From a virus (lineage: Duplodnaviria; Caudoviricetes), in the IMG/VR virus record IMGVR_UViG_3300007345_000037, positions 1 through 59,831 of that record: a stretch of DNA of 59,831 bases; one strand, given 5' to 3'. Positions 4,515 to 55,266 of this stretch are shown here, in pieces. The notes under the pieces were generated by a model that saw only the letters and a program-made list of their open reading frames with translations, searched no databases and had not been told where the DNA came from. Within the stretch, counting starts at the first letter, position 1. Each line of letters starts with the position of its first letter. The position numbers and the translations under genes were made by a program.

Positions 4515-4557
4515 CTGTTAGGGCAACATTAAATAAAACACTTCCGTGGGACAGGAC

Positions 4558-4962
4558 ATGAGCGCAACGAATCGTCGTGTACGACGGGCTATTCTCGAAA
4601 TACTTTGGGAAGGCGGACCAATGACGAAAGAAGATGTTGCCGTCGCTCTCGGTGAAAAGAAGGGAGTCAATCACATTCCTTCACCTCATTCCCTTTCCGC
4701 ACTGCTGTGCAAGTCCCATTCGGTGATTACCGTTGGCAAACGCAAGGTTGAGAATATCCTCGGCCATCGTTCATCTCACGCACTTTACGATTTGGACCGT
4801 GAAGTAGTATTATCGAAAGACGAAATCAAGTTCATCCGTGAACCTTCGACCATGACTCCATCGGAGCGCAGGCAAGCCATGAAATGTGTGGCTTGTGGTC
4901 GAACTCGCATCTTTCCTCCGAACTCCGAGGAATGTTTGCATTGTGGTCGAATATCCGTTTAG
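4558..4962 (+). CDS. wHTH plus C-terminal Zn-ribbon protein (putative transcription regulator)
   Basis: AILEILWEGGPMTKEDVAVAL wHTH-like start and CVACG...CLHCG. TATA TTAAATA lies about 29 bp upstream. Confidence 0.65.
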   Translation: MSATNRRVRRAILEILWEGGPMTKEDVAVALGEKKGVNHIPSPHSLSALLCKSHSVITVGKRKVENILGHRSSHALYDLDREVVLSKDEIKFIREPSTMTPSERRQAMKCVACGRTRIFPPNSEECLHCGRISV

Positions 4963-4986
4963 TCGGACCACCACAACCTTTATAAG
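4958..4986 (+). promoter_or_regulatory. TTTAGTCG-N13-TATA promoter
   Basis: TTTAGTCG at 4958-4965, then 13 bp, then TTTATAAG from 4979, upstream of ORF 5020. Confidence 0.7.
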
Positions 4987-5711: not shown

Positions 5712-6130
5712 GTGTCACACGAAGTCCATTCAAGGTCGGCGAGAAGTTGACCGTCGCCCAAATCAAGGAGTGTGCTGGTCGCACCGCTGTGCCATCCAAG
5801 ACCGGTGGTTTCATCGTCACCGCAGTTGTGCAAACAGCATACAAGTCCGGTGGGTACCTGTTCAACGCCGAGTCCGTGAGGGCTGTCAATGGTCGCAAGG
5901 TCGAAGTCGCTTGGCACCTCATACACCCACGCCGCCGAGCCAAGAACGGCAACCAAATGGTTTCAAGGAAACAATACTTCTCGGCCTTCCGTGTCATTGT
6001 ACCACAGGCAGAAGAGAAGCCTTATATGCCTCGCAGTGAAAGGGAACATGAAGCCCCCGTATCTAAGACGCAACCGGCTGGAACTCGTAAATACAAGGGT
6101 ATCGTACTCGCAGACTTTTTGGAGGAATGA
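5708..6130 (+). CDS. Hypothetical basic protein
   Basis: ATGA overlap with the upstream gene in the same operon. Confidence 0.6.
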   Translation: MSVTRSPFKVGEKLTVAQIKECAGRTAVPSKTGGFIVTAVVQTAYKSGGYLFNAESVRAVNGRKVEVAWHLIHPRRRAKNGNQMVSRKQYFSAFRVIVPQAEEKPYMPRSEREHEAPVSKTQPAGTRKYKGIVLADFLEE

Positions 6131-6278
6131 ACATGAACATAACAGTAAAAATTGACCTTGACATTGACCTTGACATTGACATTGATGAACTAATGGATAA
6201 CACCTTGCGTGACATAATTAAGAATGAGATTGAATCATGCTACATGGAAGACATTCTTGACTGCATTGAGGTGAGCGA

Positions 6279-6491
6279 ATGAGTTATTACACTATGATGG
6301 ACCTCGCTCTTTTCGTTGCTAACGATGTTTGGAAGTACGACCGTGATACTGTCGAACACATGTGTGATGAAAGTTCGTGCAAAGTAGTCATCGACTTCTT
6401 TGAAGCACACGAGGACAATTTCGCTTCCGACTGTTCCATGCAAATCAAATTCGCCGAACAATTTCAAGCACTTTTGGGGGCGGAAGAATGA
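6279..6491 (+). CDS. Small acidic hypothetical protein
   Basis: GAGGTGA SD, ATGA overlap. Confidence 0.6.
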   Translation: MSYYTMMDLALFVANDVWKYDRDTVEHMCDESSCKVVIDFFEAHEDNFASDCSMQIKFAEQFQALLGAEE

Positions 6492-6931
6492 GCGCAACAT
6501 TAAGTGATGCGTTGGGACTCGCCGCTGTTGTTGCGGCGCAGATAGGCAAGCGCATCCAATCCTCTCGACCGCTCATTGAGGAGTTGTGTGACGATTATGG
6601 CGTCGATACTGTCGTTTCATTCCTCGTGCATTGTGAACGGATTAACGGTTGGGACTGTTCCACGCAAATTGAATGGGCCAACAAAAGACGACCAAATAAC
6701 TTCTCCGCTCAAGTCACCAAAGTGCTTGAGGATTTGAAGTACCTCGGTCGCCTCGATTACAATACTTTTAAGAGTGTACTTTTCCCGCAGGCTACGGAAG
6801 ACTACCTTGACGAGAAGTGGCTTTTGTGGAACAAGGACAGGCTCGGATTCCTGTACTCGTGTTCTTCCGACAAGATACTGTTGCTTTGTGACTACATCGA
6901 AATCTGCAAGCATGGGGGGTGCGGTCAATGA
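6488..6931 (+). CDS. Hypothetical protein
   Basis: ATGA overlap, operon context. Confidence 0.6.
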   Translation: MSATLSDALGLAAVVAAQIGKRIQSSRPLIEELCDDYGVDTVVSFLVHCERINGWDCSTQIEWANKRRPNNFSAQVTKVLEDLKYLGRLDYNTFKSVLFPQATEDYLDEKWLLWNKDRLGFLYSCSSDKILLLCDYIEICKHGGCGQ

Positions 6932-7542
6932 TGCCGGAGATTCACTACAACACCTACACACAGGAAATCAAGCATCCTAAACCGTGGCAACTCGATGAAT
7001 ACGGTGAGCCGAATGTCAACGACTTTATCATCAGCGACCCTTGCTACTACATCAAGGACTCCGAATGGGGCGACTTCTGTGAGGTGTGGAACGCCGCCAC
7101 CGAAGGTCAAGGCTACGGCTCCAACATTGTCAAGTGGAAAGGCTTCGACCTCGTTATCCAATCGACGGGTGGCGACGGCTCATGGTCGTACAGCGGCTTG
7201 GAGCAGAAATTTTGGCATCGTGCTGGTACATCTCACTGTGCCGACACAGCATCCATTTGTTGCATCCCCTTTGCTCTTTGCGACACCGACCCCATGAAGA
7301 ATTACAAGGGCAACGGTATCATCGGTCACACTGACTACGGCATGGAAGACTACCCCGAAATCACTTGCGAGGGTGACTACACAGGAGTCGGTGAACCATT
7401 TGCTATTGACGGAAAAATACAGGATGGCTACACTCATTGTTGTGGTCAATATGTTGACGACGACCAATTTGAGTGGTGTGACAATGGTTCGTGCGAAGGC
7501 TGTTGGTCTTGCTTTGAATGCGACTGTGGGGATGATGAGTGA
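6919..7542 (+). CDS. Acidic Cys-rich hypothetical protein
   Basis: IISDPCY...TGGDG motif of a type seen in phage proteins of unknown function, with a Cys-rich C-terminus. True start is probably ATG 6928. Confidence 0.6.
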   Translation: MRSMMPEIHYNTYTQEIKHPKPWQLDEYGEPNVNDFIISDPCYYIKDSEWGDFCEVWNAATEGQGYGSNIVKWKGFDLVIQSTGGDGSWSYSGLEQKFWHRAGTSHCADTASICCIPFALCDTDPMKNYKGNGIIGHTDYGMEDYPEITCEGDYTGVGEPFAIDGKIQDGYTHCCGQYVDDDQFEWCDNGSCEGCWSCFECDCGDDE

Positions 7543-7678
7543 TGGCTGGAAAGGTAGTCAAGTTCTTTTTCAAGAGCGTACTGTCCTCTAAGGGACTCAT
7601 GCTTTGTCCGCTATGCGACGACGCTGTTATCGCAAAAGACGGTGAGCGAGCCTGCTACCACTGCACACTCGACGCATC

Positions 7679-7903
7679 TTGGGAAGTGGAAGTATGACCC
7701 GCTACAAGATTCTTGGACGCTGGACCGCTTGCTATCACTGCGGTAGGACTTATGAGTCGGGCCTACTTGGTCGTACAAAATGTCCTCACTGTGTCAAGTG
7801 TAAAACGCCCAACAAGTGCTTCCCTCAATTTGAGGCTAAACATCACTGCAAATTGTGCGCCGCACAGAAAGTGATTTACGATTTAACGGGGGAAGAAGAA
7901 TGA
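7679..7903 (+). CDS. Small Zn-finger protein
   Basis: CYHCG, CPHC and CKLC motifs. Confidence 0.6.
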   Translation: MGSGSMTRYKILGRWTACYHCGRTYESGLLGRTKCPHCVKCKTPNKCFPQFEAKHHCKLCAAQKVIYDLTGEEE

Positions 7904-8091
7904 TTGACACAGACAAATACGAAGGAAGCGAAGGCCGATACTTCACAGGTAAGATGGTTGATAACTACATGAACCTACAAGCAGAAGTCCAGCGGTTGCG
8001 TGAAGGTATCAAAGAGTTATCCGAAGATTGGCTACGATGGGATGAAAGAGGAATAAAGATGGCTAAAACACTAATGGAGTTGATTGAATGA
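7855..8091 (+). CDS. Small coiled-coil hypothetical protein
   Basis: Probable start ATG 7900 (MIDTDKY), ATGA overlap with the RFC gene. Confidence 0.5.
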   Translation: MRRTESDLRFNGGRRMIDTDKYEGSEGRYFTGKMVDNYMNLQAEVQRLREGIKELSEDWLRWDERGIKMAKTLMELIE

Positions 8092-8990
8092 CCGTTTGGG
8101 CTACTCACCACCGACCAACAAGTCTTACGGGAATAGTAGGACAAGACCAACTCGTCGCTGAACTACATCAAGTGGTTGTCGGGGAAATGCCGATGCAACA
8201 CTACATCTTCTTCTCGCCAATGGCCGGTACAGGAAAGACCTCAATGGCTATCGCTCTCGCAAAGGACTTAGGTTGGCAAATCGTGACCTTCAACGCATCT
8301 TCCAAGAGAGAGCGTGGGATTGAGTTCATTGAAGAAGTCATTATACCAATGACCCGAAGTGGTGTTAAGGAAAGAATCTTTTTGCTTGACGAGGCCGACC
8401 AACTGACCGATGCCGCACAGTCTGCTCTCAAAGGCGTTATTGAAAACGCTAACGGTTATTTCATTCTCACCTGCAACCGTCTTCCGAAGGTTTCACGCTG
8501 GCTACAAAGCCGATGCCAAGTGCGTACTTTTAGCCCAATACCAAATGAGGATATGGTTCAACAATTGACTAAAATTGCTGTTCAACACGCTCCCGATATT
8601 TCCAAGACTGCTGTCGAAGTTATCGCAAAAGGTCACGAAGGTGACTTGCGAAATGCGATTGGAGCATTACAGACCTACTGTGGTATGACAGGCAGAAACG
8701 CCGAAGCATTCCTTGACAGCCTCACTGCGCCCCACATCGACTTCTCTAAAATGTTGATAGTATGTTTTCGGGAAAAGAATCTTGAAACAGCAGTCAAGAT
8801 GTTGAAGGGTGATGTTCGGTACCAAATACGAGCGTGTTTCCAATACGCTGTCGAATCACCGGCAAAAGCACAGTCCAAGATGAAAGTCATTGAAGCGGCA
8901 ATCACTGCCGAGCGTGACATAATCAACGGTGTGGATGAAGAGGTAGTGCGCTACAACTTCGTTCGTATGTTGGTCGGAGGGAGCCAATAA
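8088..8990 (+). CDS. rfcS: Replication factor C small subunit (clamp loader)
   Basis: WATHHRP (equivalent to WVEKYRP), Walker A GTGKTS, NASSKRERGI, Walker B LLDEAD, SRC motif and GDLR. Confidence 0.93.
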   Translation: MTVWATHHRPTSLTGIVGQDQLVAELHQVVVGEMPMQHYIFFSPMAGTGKTSMAIALAKDLGWQIVTFNASSKRERGIEFIEEVIIPMTRSGVKERIFLLDEADQLTDAAQSALKGVIENANGYFILTCNRLPKVSRWLQSRCQVRTFSPIPNEDMVQQLTKIAVQHAPDISKTAVEVIAKGHEGDLRNAIGALQTYCGMTGRNAEAFLDSLTAPHIDFSKMLIVCFREKNLETAVKMLKGDVRYQIRACFQYAVESPAKAQSKMKVIEAAITAERDIINGVDEEVVRYNFVRMLVGGSQ

Positions 8991-8991
8991 C

Positions 8992-9002
8992 AACCTTTAT
9001 AT
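8992..9002 (+). promoter_or_regulatory. Archaeal promoter AACCTTTATAT
   Basis: The same AACCTTTATA motif, or a near match, recurs near 4975, 11887, 15690, 16051 and 19038, each upstream of a gene start. Confidence 0.7.
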
Positions 9003-9039
9003 CCCCACAACATGACGACAAAATACAGGAGAAATCTAC

Positions 9040-10266
9040 ATGGTAGCATACGAACAAATGATTGAAAAAGTGGCAACGCAAGTCGGAACTGACCCCAAGA
9101 CGCTATCGGCGAAAGCCGATGCAATCCTCGCCCAAGAAGGCGCAGGTTGGGAAGCATCCGGTAAGAACGAAGAACAACGCAAGACTCTTGCCCTACGAGT
9201 AGCGGCACGACAATTGGTGGCTGAAAAGGCAAAATTGACCCGCAGTGGCGCAACGATGTACGAAGGTATGTTCGTCAATGTCCCTCGTGAAAAGGATTGG
9301 GCTAAGATGGCCTACAACAAGATGAGCAAGACTCTCAAGTCGATGCCGGACATGGCACAACGCCTCGCTCTTGTTGGTCAAGGTGCGCTCATCATCTATG
9401 AGAACAACCACGACGGAACCTACACCCGTCACGCCAACCCTTCCTTGCTGAACCAGCAAGACTTCACCGAAGGTACTCGCTCGGATGAAATCAAAGAGAT
9501 TCCACCACGACATATTGCTCTTGATGCGAACACCTCGTTCTCACTCATTTGGGACAAAGCGACAACTCACTTCGCAAACGGCAAGCCGAACTTCAAGTAC
9601 GGCTCCGCTCGCCCACTTGAAGAACCCGACCGCTCGTGTCTGTTCTTGGGTCGCAAGGCTGGCTCCAACGACAGTCCGAGCCTACACTCCTTCCGGTACA
9701 ACGGCAACTTGGCAAAGCAATCTTGGCCTACCTTCGTCACCGGCACCATCGGTATGAAACCTGCCAACCGTGAAGGTATGGCATACGGTACAAAGGTCAC
9801 CGCCTTCACCACTGATGCTGAACTCTCATCCATCTTTACCGCACCACCTCTCATGGTTGACGAAAACGGTGCAAGTGGACTTATCGCTGATTGGCTCGGT
9901 GAAACGCTCATGCCTTCTCTCGACAAGTGTCACGAACACTACGGAACTCTTGACGACAAGGCAAAGTGGGACACCACCTACGCTACTGTTGTCGAAGTGG
10001 TTCACATCGACCCTCGTGAAAACGGTGGATTCATCGTGACCGTGGCTGATGCCGATATTATGTCGGAAACCCCACCAATCGAAGTCTATGTCGGTGCCTC
10101 CGAGGAAACCTCGGTTGACTTCGGCGTTGGTTCGGAACTCGTTGTTGTTGGCTCCCCGTGGGTCACTCGTGACGGCGAGGCTCGCTTTATGACCTCCGGC
10201 TGGTGGTGCATGAACCGCATCGCACCTCTCGCTGACACTGACGATGGCGAAGACGGCTGGGATTGA
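9040..10266 (+). CDS. Putative single-stranded DNA-binding protein (RPA-like, OB folds)
   Basis: Beta-rich C-terminal OB-like segment (VVEVVHID...VGSELVVVG), acidic tail DTDDGEDGWD and position inside the replication cluster. Confidence 0.55.
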   Translation: MVAYEQMIEKVATQVGTDPKTLSAKADAILAQEGAGWEASGKNEEQRKTLALRVAARQLVAEKAKLTRSGATMYEGMFVNVPREKDWAKMAYNKMSKTLKSMPDMAQRLALVGQGALIIYENNHDGTYTRHANPSLLNQQDFTEGTRSDEIKEIPPRHIALDANTSFSLIWDKATTHFANGKPNFKYGSARPLEEPDRSCLFLGRKAGSNDSPSLHSFRYNGNLAKQSWPTFVTGTIGMKPANREGMAYGTKVTAFTTDAELSSIFTAPPLMVDENGASGLIADWLGETLMPSLDKCHEHYGTLDDKAKWDTTYATVVEVVHIDPRENGGFIVTVADADIMSETPPIEVYVGASEETSVDFGVGSELVVVGSPWVTRDGEARFMTSGWWCMNRIAPLADTDDGEDGWD

Positions 10267-18747: not shown

Positions 18748-19020
18748 ATGCAATACATTGTGTGCAGTGATAAATTAAGCGATTTGACAAAAGCCGTTGA
18801 AGAACACGGTGTTGAAAATGTGTATTGGCTTGCCGATTCGACACGAAACCGTGAAGCGGATTCTCTCGGACTTCCAAACAGCCGTCTTCTCCCACTTCAA
18901 AAGTTCTCAAAGGAAAGCGTTCTCGCTCTATTCGGCGACAAGGCAACCGTTTGGGGAGAGAAGGCACCTGCCCCTAAGAAGGCACCTGCCAAAAAGTCTT
19001 CTCCTAAGAAGGAAGAGTGA
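18748..19020 (+). CDS. Hypothetical protein with Lys/Ala/Pro-rich tail
   Basis: GGGGTGA SD, C-terminus KAPAPKKAPAKKSSPKKEE. Confidence 0.6.
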   Translation: MQYIVCSDKLSDLTKAVEEHGVENVYWLADSTRNREADSLGLPNSRLLPLQKFSKESVLALFGDKATVWGEKAPAPKKAPAKKSSPKKEE

Positions 19021-19021
19021 C

Positions 19022-19049
19022 TTTAGTCGCCCATAACAACCTTTATATG
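19022..19049 (+). promoter_or_regulatory. TTTAGTCG-N12-TATA promoter
   Basis: TTTAGTCG at 19022-19029, TTTATATG from 19042, ATG at 19071. Confidence 0.65.
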
Positions 19050-19070
19050 CCTGCCCGTGTATGTATATAC

Positions 19071-19988
19071 ATGGGAGAGAAGAACTCAACATACGACCCT
19101 ACTAAGGTCACTGACGAATTGTGCTTGCGCGTTAGCAAGTCTTCGTACACACAGTATGCTATGTGTCCTCGACAGTATTGGTGGAACAAGATTGCTTTGC
19201 CGGACTTGGAGTTCAAGTCCAGCGACGCCGCTATTCGTGGTACTGCTATTCACCAAGTTATGGAGGATGGGCTACGAGAAGTATCTTTGGACAAGGAAAA
19301 GTCTATTGGCACCAATACACAAATGTACAATGTGTTCAACAAACACGCTGTCGCTCAAGGCGTTGAAACCGAAGTCGGTGTTGACGCTCTTATTGAGATT
19401 CTTGGCGAGGTCGCTGATGCTTGGGGCCACTTTGAAATCGTTGAACTTGAAGACAAGCACACCATTCCCCACACAATCGAAGTCTTGGTGCCTAACGAGG
19501 CCGAGGATGGCGTCGATACTGTTTCCTACCCTGTGGAACTTGTCGGCATGATTGACGGCGTTTTCCGCCACCCCGACGGTCACCTTGTAGTTGTCGAATT
19601 GAAGACCGGCAACGCCAACCAAAGCAAGTTGTCCCGCACCCGTGGGGAACTGTGCTACTACCGGAAGTTGTTGATGTTGGCAGGCTACGACGAGCCGACC
19701 CACTTCTTGACCATCTTCCCCGACGCAGACGATGCCGAGTTCATGCTTAAGTTGGAAGGGAAAAGAAACACTGAATTGTTTTATGGTCTTTCACAGGGTA
19801 TCGCTGTGTACGAAAAAGTCAACAAGCGCAGTATCTCTGCTATGGAGAAGAAGTTAAATAACTCCGTACACGGCATTATGACCCAAGAGTGGCCTATCAA
19901 GTGGAACGAATACTTCTGCACCCAATGGTGTGACTTCCACTTGTCGTGCAACGAAGAACTTATTGGAGTGGACAACGATGAACTGTAA
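19071..19988 (+). CDS. Cas4/AddB-like PD-(D/E)XK exonuclease with Fe-S staple
   Basis: SKSS...CPRQY, RGTAIH, GMIDG, VELKTG and C-terminal C..WC....C. Solo gene with no other cas genes. Confidence 0.85.
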   Translation: MGEKNSTYDPTKVTDELCLRVSKSSYTQYAMCPRQYWWNKIALPDLEFKSSDAAIRGTAIHQVMEDGLREVSLDKEKSIGTNTQMYNVFNKHAVAQGVETEVGVDALIEILGEVADAWGHFEIVELEDKHTIPHTIEVLVPNEAEDGVDTVSYPVELVGMIDGVFRHPDGHLVVVELKTGNANQSKLSRTRGELCYYRKLLMLAGYDEPTHFLTIFPDADDAEFMLKLEGKRNTELFYGLSQGIAVYEKVNKRSISAMEKKLNNSVHGIMTQEWPIKWNEYFCTQWCDFHLSCNEELIGVDNDEL

Positions 19989-50685: not shown

Positions 50686-51867
50686 TCAAGCCTTGAAGCG
50701 TCGCTCAAGAGCGATGCCCAAAAGGGTGACTTGCTCGCCATCCACTGCCACTTCAAAGGCACATGGGACAACATCGAAGTCCATCTTGCTCCACTTGCCA
50801 CCCTCAATTCGGGTGCTAAATCGGGATGCGTCGCCGTCGTTGGTCATGCAATCGGCCATGAGTTGGGCCGGTGTGATTTGGCCACGGTGAGCCATCACAA
50901 CACGGTTGAACAGGGCCTTCGTGATGCGGCAAGCCTTGAAGTGGACTCGGTGGCCGCCGTAGGTCTTGAGGCCAGCGTTCACCTTGTCCAAGACCGGTAG
51001 GTGCATGGTCACGCTGTTGTATCCAAGGTTGCGCTTCGGGGTACCGCAAGCAGGGCAGGCGTTGGCTCGGCTCACTTGCTGGTGTCCCCATGCCTTGCGA
51101 CAGTCGGAGCAGTACCGCTGGGCGGCGTGGCCGTTGTTGGTCCAATCAAGCACCGTTTCGGCGTTGATGGCAAGGTGTGCCTTTAGGCAGTCCACGCCAT
51201 CGCCTTGAAGGGCGTAGCGGTGGACGGTGGAGCCTTCAACACGGTTGCGAGTGTCGAGGGCAAGGTCACCCTTTCGCTTGTCATTCAGTTGCTTCAAGGT
51301 GTCCATTCCGTCACGGATGAGGGCCTTGCTGTCAACCGGCACATATCGCACCATATCGCCTTCAATGAGGCCGAAGGCTTGCATCATTTCGGGGGTGGCT
51401 TCCATCAAGTCGAGGTCGATGGCTTCGGCTGACTGACCGGACTTCTCAACGGCGTGGCGGTTGGCGTCACGGTATGCCTTGAGGCTGACCAAAGCGGCCA
51501 AGGCTCGGCGGACTGCTGGCTTCATCACGAGGTCGGTGGCGTCGAGTTCGCCAAGGTCGTAGGTTCGTGGTTGTTGGTTTGGTCGGATGGTCTTGACCGG
51601 TCGGAATCCAGCGGCCTTGATGGCCGCCATGCTTGGGTTCTTGATGCCCATCTCGTCGTTTAGCCCCTTGAGTACCGTGGCTGGTACGGTGTCCTTCGCT
51701 TGGTACTTGTTGACCCGTCGGGTCATGGCTCGGTTGGCGTTGCTGTGCTTTGACACAGCCTCCACCAATGTGACCATGATAACCTCATGGGGGTTTTCGG
51801 TTCCGTTGATGAACTGCTTCATCATGCTTGCTTCGTTTGCGTTTTGTGTGTTTTCGCTGTTTTGCAT
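50686..51867 (-). CDS. Hypothetical ~393-aa protein with Zn ribbon (candidate early DNA-binding or ori-associated protein)
   Basis: GGAGGG SD, CSDC...CPACG motif, GC-rich codon usage. It borders the repeat tract. Confidence 0.75.
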   Translation of the reverse strand: MQNSENTQNANEASMMKQFINGTENPHEVIMVTLVEAVSKHSNANRAMTRRVNKYQAKDTVPATVLKGLNDEMGIKNPSMAAIKAAGFRPVKTIRPNQQPRTYDLGELDATDLVMKPAVRRALAALVSLKAYRDANRHAVEKSGQSAEAIDLDLMEATPEMMQAFGLIEGDMVRYVPVDSKALIRDGMDTLKQLNDKRKGDLALDTRNRVEGSTVHRYALQGDGVDCLKAHLAINAETVLDWTNNGHAAQRYCSDCRKAWGHQQVSRANACPACGTPKRNLGYNSVTMHLPVLDKVNAGLKTYGGHRVHFKACRITKALFNRVVMAHRGQITPAQLMADCMTNDGDASRFSTRIEGGKWSKMDFDVVPCAFEVAVDGEQVTLLGIALERRFKA

Positions 51868-52242
51868 TTGGTTTCCCTCCTGTATTCCCACCGGAGTTCT
51901 CCCTCCTATATGAGCATTTGACGACTAATCCATGAAATTCGGCTGTTTTGGGGGTTTTTGGTTTGCTCCGGCTCGGCCTGCCACCGGCCCGACAATGTGC
52001 CTAAACGGGCTGGAATCGCACTTTTCATTCATGTTTTGGTTCATGTTTTGGGTTTGGGTCAACTAAACGATGCACTGCGAGGCGGTGGCCCCTGTTTCGC
52101 CAGCCTGTTTCGACCCGAACATGAATCATTCTTGTTCACTTTTCGGCTCGGAAGTGGTCCGACGGCGCACCGGAGCCGAGGCGGACAATGTTGGAATTTG
52201 AGCCAATTTCGCACTTTGAACCCGGATATGAGCGTTCGGCGT

Positions 52243-52370
52243 TTTAGGGTGCCCTAAATCTCCGATTTGCCGAAATGCACATGAAGCGTTCATGTTTTAG
52301 GGCCGCCTAAACATTTTTAGGGCGACCTAAATTTTTTTAGGGCAACCTAAATCATTTAGTCGCGACTAAA
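52243..52370. repeat. Tandem 16-bp palindromes TTTAG-N6-CTAAA
   Basis: Copies at 52243, 52296, 52316, 52336 and 52355; the last four are spaced 19-20 bp apart. Confidence 0.9.
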
Positions 52371-52820
52371 TCCGAAAACGCAAATCAAAATTTAGTCGGT
52401 ATCCAGGACATTAAAATAGAAAATTTAGTCGAAAATTATCGAAAATAAAAATAGACCAAATTTAGTCGGTATCGAATTAGTCGAAAAGAGGATTTTTAAT
52501 TAGTCGGCATCGAAATTTTAGTCGAGGGGTGGCCCCCGCCTGCAACACACGCAGACGAGGACCGGAGGGGTGAGCGTGAAGGGTGGTCCCAGCCCGTAGG
52601 CTGGGAATCGCCACCCGTGGGGTGCTGGTCACAGCAGTGCTTGGCAGTGCGGGCAGACAGGTGTACGAGGTGCGCCGGTGTTGGCAAGGGTGGTGTATCG
52701 ACCTTGCTTTTCGGACCACACGCCCGCTTCACGGGCAAGGTCGGAAGGCGACCAAGCGGAGTGCTTGGCACCACACAGGGCGAGAGGTTGACCGGAGAGG
52801 CGAATGTGAAGGATAGCCAT

Positions 52821-53153
52821 TCAAGCCACCGCCGGAATTTCGTGCATCACAATGTCGCTGTTTGGGCACATGATGATGAGGCGGTCGAGGGTTGCGTCGA
52901 TGAGGTAGCGAGGGACATAGGTCGGGACGGCGATGTCGGGTGTGGCGGTGTAGGAGGCGGCGGCGAGGGAGTAGCCATGCGAACCGAGCAGGGTTTCGAT
53001 GGTGTCGCTGAATTGGTTGAGTAGGTCGTCAACATTCGGCGAGTTGTAGTCAAAGCAGACCTCATGGTACATCTGTACCACGGTGTCGAGAACCGCAGGG
53101 TTCACGGGGTAGGTCGGCAGTCGGGCTTCGGGGGTTATGGTTTGTTGTGCCAT
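52821..53153 (-). CDS. Hypothetical protein embedded in the repeat tract
   Basis: 110-aa ORF with GC3-rich codons, TATA-like CTTTAAG upstream on the - strand. Confidence 0.65.
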   Translation of the reverse strand: MAQQTITPEARLPTYPVNPAVLDTVVQMYHEVCFDYNSPNVDDLLNQFSDTIETLLGSHGYSLAAASYTATPDIAVPTYVPRYLIDATLDRLIIMCPNSDIVMHEIPAVA

Positions 53154-53487
53154 GTTTGTACCATAGTCACTCTCCCCTTAAAGGCATCGGTGATAGGCGG
53201 TTTTAGTCGGCAAAGTCGGCCACAGGTGGCCCCTACTTGGGGGCCGCAGGCCCAATAATCGACTAAACGGGGGAGTAATAATTTATCTTTAGTCGCGACT
53301 AATTCAAGTGCTTTGTTATTTTTTAGTCGTTATCGGAACGATTTTTTTATTTAGTCGAAATTTAAAAAACGATAAAATTTAGTCGAAAATCAAAGACAAT
53401 AAAATTTAGTCGAAATCAAAAATTATCGAAATTTTAGTCGGCCAAAATCATGTTTAGTCGCTAAGAAAGAAAAGTATATAAGGGGTA

Positions 53488-53518
53488 GCCCAGCCCCCCG
53501 CCGAAGCGGGGTTCGGGC
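53488..53518. other. Strong GC hairpin
   Basis: CCCCGC-CGAA-GCGGGG core with extendable flanks. It could be the terminator for 53763-53560 or part of a small RNA. Confidence 0.55.
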
Positions 53519-53559
53519 GGCTCCGGCTCGTGGCCGTATTTAGTCGGTGAGTTAGTCGC

Positions 53560-53763
53560 TCAAACAATCATTGTCCACTTGAACACGATGAAATTGTTTT
53601 CCTTCCTGTTTGTGAACACGCAGACAGTGAAGGTTTCAAATGACTCTTCAAGGTCTTCATCGTACACGGTTTCCAACTTGCCGCCGGGATAATACATTGG
53701 CAGGTCGTTCCATTGTTCTTCGTTCTCGTGTGTTAGTGCAGTGTTTATTATCATGTAGTCCAT
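53560..53763 (-). CDS. Small acidic hypothetical protein with its own promoter
   Basis: GGAGG SD and a TTTAGTCG-N13-CTTAAATA promoter on the - strand. Confidence 0.7.
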   Translation of the reverse strand: MDYMIINTALTHENEEQWNDLPMYYPGGKLETVYDEDLEESFETFTVCVFTNRKENNFIVFKWTMIV

Positions 53764-53796
53764 GTTTTTGCCTCCATCTGTTGCTCGCCTCGCTAC

Positions 53797-53825
53797 TATT
53801 TAAGTTTATGGGAGGGGCGACTAAA
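53797..53825 (-). promoter_or_regulatory. TTTAGTCG-N13-TATA promoter
   Basis: The - strand reads GTTTAGTCGCCCCTCCCATAAACTTAAATAGTAG. Confidence 0.75.
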
Positions 53826-54018
53826 CGCCGATTTTATCATTATACCTTAGTCGTGACTAACTCGCAGGGGATTTGGGGAATTAAGGAACCCATCTAGTCG
53901 GGACTAATTAGTCGCGACTAATTTATTACTCCCCCATCGGCGCATTCGGGAAGCGGCACCCCACTCCTATGAGTATGTGGGGGTATATAACCTTTGCTTT
54001 GAGGCGAATTTTTAGTCG

Positions 54019-54458
54019 CGACTAATTTTATGGGGCGCAGTTGTTTGTTTAGTCGTTATTTGGCTTCGTCGGCTTCGAGTAGGGGGTAGTGGCGACCCTG
54101 TTCACTTTAACCGACTAAACGCTGTACTGCGGACTGATACTTTAGTCGAAATTTAAAAATTAGTCGCGACTAAAAAAATGGGGTGCAGTGATGCGTTTAG
54201 TCGAAATTTAGCATCGGGATGCCTCGGCCTCTATCCCGAAGGGTACCACATTGAAATACCGACTAAACAGTGTACTGCGAGGCAGAAATTTAGTCGGGAC
54301 TAAACAGTGCTACGGGGTGCGTTTAGTTGCGACTAGAAAAATGCCTTTCAGTGGTGCGTTTAGTCGAATTAAACCGCCATAAGACTCCACCGCCCTACTC
54401 AGCCATCGAAATTCTAAAGCACGACTAAACGGTGTACTGCGTGATAGAAAATTAGTCG
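54019..54458. repeat. Three ~130-bp cassettes of inverted 37-bp modules flanking 55-56-bp spacers
   Basis: Module pairs 54019-54055/54112-54148, 54167-54203/54260-54296 and 54330-54366/54422-54458. Confidence 0.85.
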
Positions 54459-54885
54459 CTACTAAAGGCATCACTGCGTTTTGGGGGGCGACTAAAGATT
54501 ATTGACTACAAAAAAACGAATAACGACTAACGAGCCAAGTCAAATCCCGGATATTGACCACCGATAATTTAGTCGAAAGTGCAAAAGTTCAAAAATGCGA
54601 TGAAATTTTAGTCGTTATCGAAATCCTGAAAAACCGTTATTGTAGTCAATAATTTAGTCACGACTAAGTATCAGGGGCACCGCCCGCTCCGCCGGTTTCT
54701 GTGGGGTTTATTTAGTCGAAATTATTTCCGGCAAAAATTGAACGACAATTTAGTCGAAAAAAATAACAGCCGAAAAATCAGCAAATCCGACCGTAGCAGT
54801 TAGTCGAAAATCGAAAAAACCAGCCGATTTAGTCGCCCGTCCCAATCCGGCCCTCTTTAATAATACACTACGCACAAGATAAGCG

Positions 54886-54919
54886 TTTAGTCGGGGTACC
54901 GGAAACTTTAAATAGTAGT
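54886..54919 (+). promoter_or_regulatory. TTTAGTCG-N13-TATA promoter
   Basis: GTTTAGTCGGGGTACCGGAAACTTTAAATAGTAG upstream of ATG 54959. Confidence 0.8.
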
Positions 54920-54958
54920 ACATCTATGGGTATATAAGACCCGAAGGAGATACCCCAA

Positions 54959-55111
54959 ATGAGCCGAACCAACCCAACTGAAACCCTAAGCGTGAAAGGC
55001 GTCGCATGTCAAAAATGCGGTTGCCGTAAATTCCGACCGATAGGGCATTCCCTTGAGAATGTCCGATGTGTCCACTGTGGCACATTCACTTTCCTGTGGG
55101 GTGCTGTTTGA
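54959..55111 (+). CDS. Micro Zn-ribbon protein (50 aa)
   Basis: Translated by hand: MSRTNPTETLSVKGVACQKCGCRKFRPIGHSLENVRCVHCGTFTFLWGAV. AGGAG SD. Confidence 0.6.
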   Translation: MSRTNPTETLSVKGVACQKCGCRKFRPIGHSLENVRCVHCGTFTFLWGAV

Positions 55112-55266
55112 TGGTTGACCTCACCGTTGACGATTGTATCGCTATCGCCGCCGCATTGGAAATGTACGCAGGCAAAATCATGCGAACCCACCCTCACCAA
55201 TCCGCTGAAAACCTCGACCTTGTGCGAAAAATCTGGTGGGCGATTGATATGGAGGCTGAATTGTGA
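55111..55266 (+). CDS. Small hypothetical protein
   Basis: TGATG overlap with the upstream ORF (starts MVDLTVDD). Confidence 0.5.
   Translation: MVDLTVDDCIAIAAALEMYAGKIMRTHPHQSAENLDLVRKIWWAIDMEAEL

Follow-up and report, generated by a model that had tools for sequence, protein, structure and literature searches.

Phased, dyad-symmetric heptamer cassettes in the control region of a magrovirus-like virus: candidate operator platforms for a virus-encoded transcription regulator

In the divergent control region of a virus that we treat as magrovirus-like, ~0.5 kb upstream of the first early gene, three cassettes of 129 or 130 bp set inverted 37-bp modules on either side of a spacer of nearly constant length. 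These cassettes make up only a small fraction of a wider zone rich in the heptamer TTAGTCG, and we propose, with moderate confidence, that they serve a viral transcription regulator as phased operator platforms with dyad symmetry. What the sequences show is the sites, their geometry and conservation, their association with promoters, and a motif specific to each lineage; the binding of that viral protein, its effect on transcription, and the direction of the effect are what we infer. One virus-encoded, sequence-specific protein would recognize TTAGTCG, and the cassettes would be dyad-symmetric, precisely phased clusters of its sites. Since single heptamers mark early and accessory promoters, this protein would most likely be a transcription regulator. 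With four heptamers and a central half-site available per cassette, it could form a defined multiprotein complex that holds or loops the DNA, and such a complex might switch, insulate, or titrate transcription of the leftward accessory genes versus the rightward early operon.

The stretch of DNA analyzed (the window) is an entire IMG/VR virus record of 59,831 bp, linear, with a CheckV completeness of 91%. It encodes a large terminase (TerL), a portal protein, an Mre11-like exonuclease, a family-B DNA polymerase (PolB), a clamp-loader-like AAA+ protein, a Cpn60-family chaperonin, and an AAA_24 ATPase, along with a DNA methylase, a PD-(D/E)XK nuclease, and ArdA; no tRNAs were found in it. Among isolated viruses, the top matches of the polymerase are haloarchaeal tailed viruses (E value of ~1e-36, compared to 1e-20 for phages), and the chaperonin is of the GroEL type, with bacterial GroEL proteins as its closest named cellular matches (~30% identity). 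Magroviruses, in the portion of the report of Philosof et al. used here, are described as having a halovirus-close family-B polymerase plus a GroEL (PMC5434244). On the basis of these two features and of the archaeal-type promoters described below, the virus is treated as a probable magrovirus-like, marine archaeal-type tailed virus. The heptamer-rich zone is flanked by o401, the neighbor of the terminase gene, and by the first early gene, a Zn-ribbon open reading frame (ORF) of 50 amino acids (54959-55111, plus strand) that is conserved in relatives; downstream of the latter lie a gene for a 486-amino-acid protein (o486), more small genes, and ArdA. The only plausible ORFs within the zone itself are two small leftward ones, at 52821-53153 and 53560-53763.

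Direct reading and a pattern search agreed with the earlier note that all six modules are exactly 37 bp long and that the cassettes measure 130, 130, and 129 bp. Cassette 1 (54019-54148) consists of a left module at 54019-54055, a 56-bp spacer at 54056-54111, and a right module at 54112-54148; cassette 2 (54167-54296) consists of a left module at 54167-54203, a 56-bp spacer at 54204-54259, and a right module at 54260-54296; and cassette 3 (54330-54458) consists of a degenerate left module at 54330-54366 that begins with CGACTAG, a 55-bp spacer at 54367-54421, and a right module at 54422-54458. The right modules read CGACTAAAC-NN-TGTACTGCG...TTAGTCG and the left modules are inverted, the two modules flanking a spacer being just 70 to 78% complementary. 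An extra heptamer precedes the left modules of cassettes 1 and 2, creating the palindrome TTAGTCGCGACTAA at 54012-54025 (overlapping the start of cassette 1) and at 54160-54173 (cassette 2), with a degenerate copy at 54323-54336; the true tandem unit, missed in the first reading, is 148 or 163 bp. Each cassette carries four heptamers (outer, inner, inner, and outer) whose start-to-start distances of 30, 63, and 30 bp correspond to ~3, 6, and 3 helical turns. Every module also contains a GCAGT word, and a G-run half-site is found at the exact center of the spacer. The hairpin noticed earlier in spacer 2 (TCGGGAT..ATCCCGA) is present, and so is the GAGTAGGG common to spacer 1 and the reverse complement of spacer 3; the latter match is a portion of a conserved central spacer element, which appears as GAGTAGGGGG in cassette 1 (54077-54086, forward) and as CCCTACTC in cassette 3 (54393-54400, reversed).

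TTAGTCG occurs 53 times in the window, compared to 5.55 expected copies (standard deviation, 2.29; largest count in 100 shuffles, 14), and 48 of the 53 exact TTAGTCG/CGACTAA copies fall within a mostly noncoding zone at 51922-54893 (51.9 to 54.9 kb), between o401/TerL and the early genes. When 48 sites were placed at random in this 3-kb zone 20,000 times, the five observed (−,+) pairs at exactly 30 bp and the five observed abutting palindromes were each matched in 0 of 20,000 placements, and the three (+,−) pairs at 62 or 63 bp were matched in 1 of 20,000. Neither the number nor the spacing of the heptamers is thus due to chance. Besides the cassettes, the zone has five TTAGTCGCGACTAA palindromes (the two at cassettes 1 and 2 and further copies at 52356-52369, 53289-53302, and 53908-53921), many single heptamers, and two direct arrays on the plus strand. 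Array 1 (52392-52524) has six same-strand heptamers after the palindrome at 52356; array 2 (53323-53460) has seven, mostly 27 to 28 bp apart. No other 80-bp windows of the genome are as AT-rich as those in these arrays.

Relatives retain this layout. Scanning viral contigs with the 14-base palindrome yielded 45 loci, 15 of which carry 35 to 63 heptamers within 3 kb. The 15 motif-rich loci are syntenic with the window (exonuclease, terminase, o401, zone, Zn-ribbon gene, and 486-amino-acid protein), with identities to the window of 78 to 91% for the terminase and 63 to 75% for the Zn-ribbon protein but only 24 to 34% for o401. The position of the zone is constant, with TerL/o401 on one side and the Zn-ribbon early gene on the other, and the cassettes sit near its right end. 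No homologues of the two small zone ORFs of the window were found in the syntenic loci compared; relatives have other small leftward genes at the same places, each with a heptamer-TATA promoter, and with a heptamer array and palindrome on the 3′ side. In the window and the 15 loci together, near-identical ones included, the (−,+) spacing of exactly 30 bp occurs 79 times and the (+,−) spacing of 62 or 63 bp occurs 36 times. Using a generalized half-site at all loci, we counted 30 distinct cassettes; these are related via descent and tandem duplication, so the counts do not represent independent events. Their spacers measure 55 bp (11 cassettes), 56 bp (18 cassettes), or 57 bp (1 cassette), whereas the linkers that separate neighboring cassettes are 18 and 33 bp long in the window and, in the relatives, 33, 42, 48, or 67 bp long; thus, the length constraint lies on the spacer and not beside it. 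The earlier argument that fixed length combined with variable sequence suggests geometry holds for all 30.

The modules have the consensus CGACTAA-N10-cGCAGT-N7-TTAGTCG and were better conserved than the spacers in the positional pairs compared. Between loci L020 and L032, the modules are identical at fractions of 1.00 and 0.95 and the spacer at 0.48; for cassette 2 of L015 and L035, the corresponding values are 0.97 and 1.00 for the modules and 0.61 for the spacer. Spacer divergence of this sort looks like replacement rather than drift. As had been noticed in the window, the spacers differ in sequence while sharing AT-rich edges and GC-rich centers, and relatives keep both properties. The G+C fraction is at most 0.13 at spacer positions 2 to 6, and the central element approximates W-T-A-K-G-W-GGGG, its G- or C-run starting at position 25 to 28 in 20 of 26 cassettes; because orientation in this profile was chosen by G content, only the sharp localization of the element counts as evidence. 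In the window, in L016, and in L025, the element has the forward orientation in the initial cassettes and the reverse orientation in the final one.

Fixed-length variable spacers between conserved repeats, replaced between viruses with nearly identical modules, bring to mind a CRISPR-like adaptive repeat-spacer memory or invertible or recombination cassettes, and the earlier note had raised a guide or memory role. We consider this extremely unlikely. CRISPR arrays likewise alternate conserved repeats with fixed-length variable spacers, but they consist of identical direct repeats with unique spacers; here, the modules are inverted, only one to three units occur (three in the window), the spacers have a conserved center and conserved edges, and the heptamer is also found singly at promoters and in direct arrays. 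Twenty DNA runs, drawn from 17 studies, contain the cassette region. Contigs of four runs, representing four studies, carry an unchanged array except for a 3-base change in spacer 1 and one module substitution, which speaks against the memory role. Compared to the window, the cassette region of these contigs differs at five places (three in spacer 1, one in left module 2, and one at 54953), and the zone as a whole has no indel and seven substitutions, among them a GGC>CAA change within spacer 1 (54062-54064; two runs) and a G>A change at 54182. These near-identical genomes therefore show no strain-level spacer turnover. No cas families were detected among 40 ORFs scanned against Pfam. With respect to inversion, the fixed orientation order of the central element in three lineages argues against flipping, and the listed cassettes included no example of one spacer lying in both orientations within the same pair of modules.

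The link to transcription comes from single heptamers. At ~50 archaeal-type promoters, a single heptamer lies 12 to 13 bp upstream of a TATA box. The promoter of the first early gene (54887-54914, plus strand) has a heptamer at 54887-54893 followed after 13 bp by the TATA box TTTAAATA at 54907-54914, and the leftward promoter of ORF 53560-53763 (53796-53824, minus strand) has a heptamer at 53818-53824 and the TATA box TTAAATAG at 53796-53803; o401 shows the same arrangement. Outside the zone, four of five heptamers belong to such promoters; these four lie on the coding strand at gene junctions, 12 to 15 bp upstream of TATA boxes such as TTTAAATA or TTTATAAG: the one at 4959-4965 (plus strand) is 15 bp upstream of TTTATAAG, and the equivalents are at 19023, 57710, and 59804. 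Across 690 unique contexts, TATA-like hexamers at positions +17 to +21 from the heptamer gave 82 downstream pattern matches, compared to 2 in the mirrored control, and an ATG ORF of at least 40 codons follows in 47 of the 56 unique heptamer-TATA contexts. TATA-to-ATG distances peak at 28 to 31 (12 cases) and at 40 to 43 (19 cases), values that fit archaeal leaderless and short-leader genes. As predicted from sequence, then, the single heptamer sites have the archaeal order of a TATA box ~26 bp before the start and a gene thereafter, and the fixed place of the heptamer before TATA boxes and ORFs marks it as a promoter-proximal upstream element.

The cassettes do not follow this heptamer-N12-TATA grammar of real promoters, which counts against the operator proposal and leaves their regulated target not visible in the sequence. 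In arrays and cassettes, an A/T tract begins one base after the heptamer (AT fractions of 0.69 to 0.80 at +8 to +11; 497 nonpalindromic contexts). Canonical TATA boxes at promoter distance are absent from the cassette spacers, where the A/T tracts of the edges abut the heptamer, and the lone TATA-like hexamer at +17 to +23 in the cassette region is in the linker between cassettes 1 and 2.

It could be argued that the cassettes are small-RNA genes or regulated promoter units, with the spacer acting as promoter, its AT-rich edge as TATA box, and the central G-run as start, or that each cassette is transcribed as a stem-loop RNA whose stem would be formed by the inverted heptamers. Either version is improbable in our judgment. 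The distance of ~26 bp from the AT-rich edge to the central G-run is the archaeal TATA-to-start distance, which is also ~26 bp in the intergenic repeats of halovirus HF2 as described in the part of that account used here (PMC8707807). The orientation of the central element (forward through reversed) is kept in three lineages, and whole cassettes fold well as single strands (mean z of −3.7). However, low folding energy follows trivially from an inverted repeat, and the earlier suggestion of an array yielding stem-loop RNAs was not borne out: spacers alone fold no better than dinucleotide shuffles (mean z of −0.17 and 0.00, n = 23; values below −2 in 1 of 23 and 0 of 23), there is no cassette-specific module pairing, and Rfam gave no match at the gathering score for the whole window and none at E ≤ 1 in 51800-55200. 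At variable positions, left/right complementarity is 0.361 within a cassette and 0.373 between different cassettes of the same virus, while the similarity is 0.565 among left modules and 0.580 among right modules, indicating that the unit was duplicated in tandem and not maintained as a hairpin. In L050, moreover, the variable first base of the heptamer does not covary across a module. The spacer is AT-rich at its two edges irrespective of how the center is oriented, and these edges are homopolymer-like, unlike the real TTATATA or TTTAAATA boxes. The spacers are not similar to the early-gene promoter beyond shuffles, and an apparent GGGTAATT match was dropped. None of the 24 runs listed is an RNA run that contains the region, and the one RNA run, from the same sample as X4, has next to none of the words. 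As a separate matter, we had considered the AT-rich flanks as directional oligo-T terminators and discarded the idea, since A- and T-runs occur on either edge.

That the putative regulator would be encoded by the virus is suggested by a wider set of relatives, gathered by a terminase-profile search. In sister lineages, the corresponding location downstream of the terminase gene has a zone enriched in other words: ATAGTCG in L081, L086 to L088, and L050; TTAGACG with TTAGCCG in L066 to L068; TTAGCCG in L072; TTTGTAAC, in up to 65 copies, in L108, L111, L113, and L119; and a TTTGTAGC-like word in L095 and L114, with further lineages carrying others. Lineages with ATAGTCG or TTAGACG retain the 37/55-56/37 geometry, which was not seen in the distant lineages examined. 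Since ~50 sites change in concert, by lineage, at the same locus, the pattern argues for a coevolving viral DNA-binding protein rather than a constant host factor.

One candidate for the heptamer binder is o401 (50686-51891, minus strand), a gene directed out of the zone whose hypervariable product contains a CxxC...CxxC zinc ribbon. Among the conserved genes of the region, it varies the most: L068 and L074 share 92.5% identity in the terminase and 27.6% in o401, and L068 and L072 share 58% in o401. The CxxC...CxxC motif is invariant in the aligned relatives. Residues H239-L240 are found in 12 of 13 aligned TTAGTCG- or ATAGTCG-type sequences and are replaced by VF or RF in two TTAG(A/C)CG viruses, a single evolutionary event and therefore a lead only. 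No viral protein is confidently predicted to bind the heptamer, a second point against the operator proposal. For o401, o486, and the other flanking proteins, no family, fold, or PDB match was found, and profile searches of PDB sequences with the flanking proteins gave nothing below an E value of 0.08. In the ESM Atlas, o401 scored at most 0.83 and o486 matched only unnamed viral clusters. The AlphaFold model of o401 was mediocre (pLDDT of 65.9) and gave no Foldseek match to the PDB at E ≤ 0.001, and that of o486 was unusable (pLDDT of 40.7). Permissive Pfam scans gave only subthreshold winged helix-turn-helix (wHTH) and zinc-ribbon hints, in ORF 4546-4962 and the 50-amino-acid protein.

A broader hypothesis, which we hold as a tentative possibility, is that, in an uncultivated clade of tailed viruses of marine archaea, the 3-kb region constitutes a site code in which a fast-evolving viral protein and ~50 7-bp words coevolve and are swapped as a module from one lineage to another, with the cassettes as loading platforms. 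The dyad cassettes would then load two opposed protein assemblies, as in a replication origin or an archaeal enhanceosome-like switch, and free replacement of the spacer might be tolerated because only its length, edges, and central G-run would matter. To our knowledge, the control and the start of the infection cycle in magrovirus-like viruses of uncultured marine archaea are experimentally uncharted. The zone offers what may be a cis-regulatory code, made up of the heptamer, the heptamer-12-13 bp-TATA grammar, a rigid dyad cassette, and natural specificity variants. Such a code would let promoters and early genes be predicted in metagenomic genomes and heteroimmune-like lineages be recognized from sequence, and the candidate binders are open to in vitro work without a cultured host. 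More generally, a repeat-spacer-like pattern can be a protein-binding scaffold, here a putative one.

The most AT-rich DNA of the genome also invites the idea of a replication origin, the main rival reading, which we judge somewhat unlikely. The heptamer binder would be, or would also act as, the replication initiator; the direct arrays would be iterons within AT-rich DNA that unwinds, the cassettes would load two initiator/helicase assemblies head to head across the spacer, and the promoter-proximal heptamers would reflect a second, regulatory role of the initiator. A palindrome together with 6 or 7 direct heptamers in the most AT-rich 80-bp stretches, the rigid dyad symmetry and center, and a lineage-specific motif that travels with an adjacent hypervariable protein, as in initiator/iteron modules, are all consistent with this idea. 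The zone also precedes the module containing PolB, the clamp-loader-like ATPase, and nucleases, and cumulative GC skew is maximal at 54 to 55 kb. Indeed, ~48 sites in 3 kb and iteron-like arrays in the most AT-rich DNA fit an origin at least as well as they fit operators. Nevertheless, a direct-repeat cluster by an AT-rich region, as expected of iterons, is what the two direct arrays show and not what the cassettes show, which are only 55% AT with a G+C-rich spacer center. The flanking ORFs scanned revealed no Orc1/Cdc6, Rep, or primase-helicase domain, the skew change is opposite to the bacterial origin rule, and the constant placement of the heptamer ahead of TATA boxes across the genome bears directly on transcription alone.

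EBV oriP comprises a family of repeats and a dyad-symmetry element bound by EBNA1, and, in both EBV oriP and the SV40 origin, repeat arrays of one protein, dyad elements, and transcriptional roles are combined; the SV40 core origin is likewise a case in point. By analogy, the zone may resemble these in its direct arrays plus dyad site clusters, its strict spacing, and the apparent use of the same protein at promoters. EBV and SV40 are eukaryotic viruses, however, whereas the initiator here is only putative and the cassette cores are G+C-rich at the center. At archaeal chromosomal origins, inverted origin recognition boxes flank an unwinding element, and the cassettes are similar in having inverted elements of ~35 bp that face each other across a short interval, with G-strings; they differ in that no Orc1/Cdc6 gene is nearby and the center of the interval is not AT-rich. 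The heptamer is not known to resemble origin recognition boxes.

Returning to the operator proposal, two bacterial systems offer partial parallels. The ω protein of pSM19035 is a ribbon-helix-helix protein that acts on operator/centromere arrays of contiguous heptads, and the “stoperators” of mycobacteriophage L5 are asymmetric 13-bp sites scattered over the whole genome. Like the zone, both use many asymmetric words of 7 bp (or 13 bp) in direct, convergent, and divergent order, with orientation mattering and with a regulatory role (a putative one for the zone); both have bacterial hosts, and neither forms 37-55/56-37 bp dyad cassettes. We rate the zone as belonging in kind with viral operator or iteron regions.

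The closest published case, as far as the part of the paper used here describes it, is that of the intergenic repeats of HF2 and other haloferacalesviruses, which fall into class I (58 bp) and class II (29 bp) and were shown to carry promoters (PMC8707807). The same source places BRE/TATA and start-site motifs at archaeal distances within these repeats, reports that their position and orientation are kept among relatives, and describes a bidirectional promoter region that lies among 12-bp direct repeats set at regular intervals (PMC8707807). The likeness lies in conserved repeats in noncoding DNA, an archaeal tailed virus, and a related family-B polymerase. As described, though, the repeats of HF2 are dispersed and each is a single promoter unit whose sequence is conserved, whereas here a 7-bp word is present ~48 times in one 3-kb zone, with 130-bp dyads whose variable, replaceable cores have no canonical TATA box at the promoter position, and with lineage-specific words, so that the architecture is different. 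HF2-type repeats are dispersed copies directly upstream of transcription units; the cassettes stand in tandem in one zone and are not directly upstream of an ORF. Compared with the paper's description of the HF2 repeats only, the cassettes have no sequence similarity to them. Searches of the literature on magrovirus repeats and noncoding DNA, including passages of two magrovirus papers, turned up no account of the zone, although supplements may contain genome maps, and a literature search for the motif itself found the 14-mer in no paper.

Finally, the zone begins 1.7 kb downstream of the large terminase gene and many related contigs end inside it, observations that could point to a pac/cos packaging recognition site or a partition centromere at which a small-terminase-like or ParB-like protein wraps DNA. 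Both pac sites and plasmid centromeres typically contain multiple copies of a short binding word. Nonetheless, we regard this as very unlikely: ~48 sites over 3 kb greatly exceed the number used by known pac/cos sites, assemblies can be expected to break at repeats and so to leave contig ends in the zone, the ORFs scanned contained no ParA or ParB domain, and the association with promoters would be left unexplained. Because two long relatives break at different places, we conclude nothing about genome termini. A scan of 185,579 prokaryote species genomes for the palindrome followed at 20 to 26 bp by a heptamer, as a host or provirus link, returned a single match, in Pseudomonas; with just 5 heptamers in 8 kb, it was chance-like and was set aside. 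Within the zone, a GC-rich block at 52525-52820, the conservation of which is limited to one close relative, gave a weak fold signal (z of −1.2 and −2.2).

Small, non-homologous leftward genes are concentrated in the zone of TTAGTCG heptamers, which forms a hotspot for them. In the window these genes lie at 52821-53153 and 53560-53763, both on the minus strand; in related viral contigs they lie at 6340-6772 and 7150-7365 (L025) and across 5955-9200 (L048). Every hotspot gene has its own heptamer-TATA promoter, as well as a heptamer array and a palindrome on its 3' side, and in L048 there are 6 or 7 such gene/promoter/array units of ~540 bp each. Between direct array 1 (the first run of same-strand heptamers) and the small open reading frame (ORF) at 52821-53153 lies a 296-bp block with 65% G+C (52525-52820), in which no convincing ORF was found; its fold signal was weak (z values of -1.2 and -2.2). 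A second palindrome family, TTTAGGGnnCCCTAAA, is present in four copies with a period of ~20 bp (52240-52350), immediately preceding the first TTAGTCGCGACTAA in the window, and its half-site resembles the G-run central element of the cassette spacers.

Further TATA boxes were seen. After the final heptamer of direct array 2, TATATAA stands at promoter distance (53454-53481, plus strand); this pair points rightward, into a G+C-rich hairpin region, and is antisense to the ORF at 53560-53763. The early-gene promoter (54907-54937) contains facing TATA boxes, TTTAAATA on the plus strand and TTATATA on the minus strand (54931-54937), which are ~24 bp apart, so that each is close to the expected start site of the other. 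Elsewhere, the PD-(D/E)XK nuclease gene (19017-19988) probably starts at ATG 19071 rather than at GTG 19017; this ATG is 29 nt downstream of a TATA box at 19042.

Equivalent motif-dense zones built on another word lie 3' of the terminase gene in L066-L068, L072, L081, L086-L088, L095, L108, L111, L113, L114, and L119. The words replacing TTAGTCG in sister lineages are TTAGACG/TTAGCCG, ATAGTCG, and TTTGTAAC or TTTGTAGC, and L068 carries hybrid palindromes (TTAGTCG with CGTCTAA). The zinc-ribbon protein o401 (50686-51891, minus strand) is hypervariable, with 17 to 46% identity compared to 78 to 95% for the adjoining terminase. Its residues H239-L240 are present in 12 of the 13 viruses with TTAGTCG or ATAGTCG and are substituted in both TTAG(A/C)CG viruses.

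In spacer 1 of the cassettes, a three-base substitution (GGC to CAA, 54062-54064) was found in contigs from two of the four public runs compared. In the lone cassette of L020 (at 7683), the modules are those of cassette 1 in L032, but the spacer is similar to that of L032 cassette 2 (L032 cassettes at 6772 and 6944), a mixture which suggests that spacers are exchanged between cassettes.
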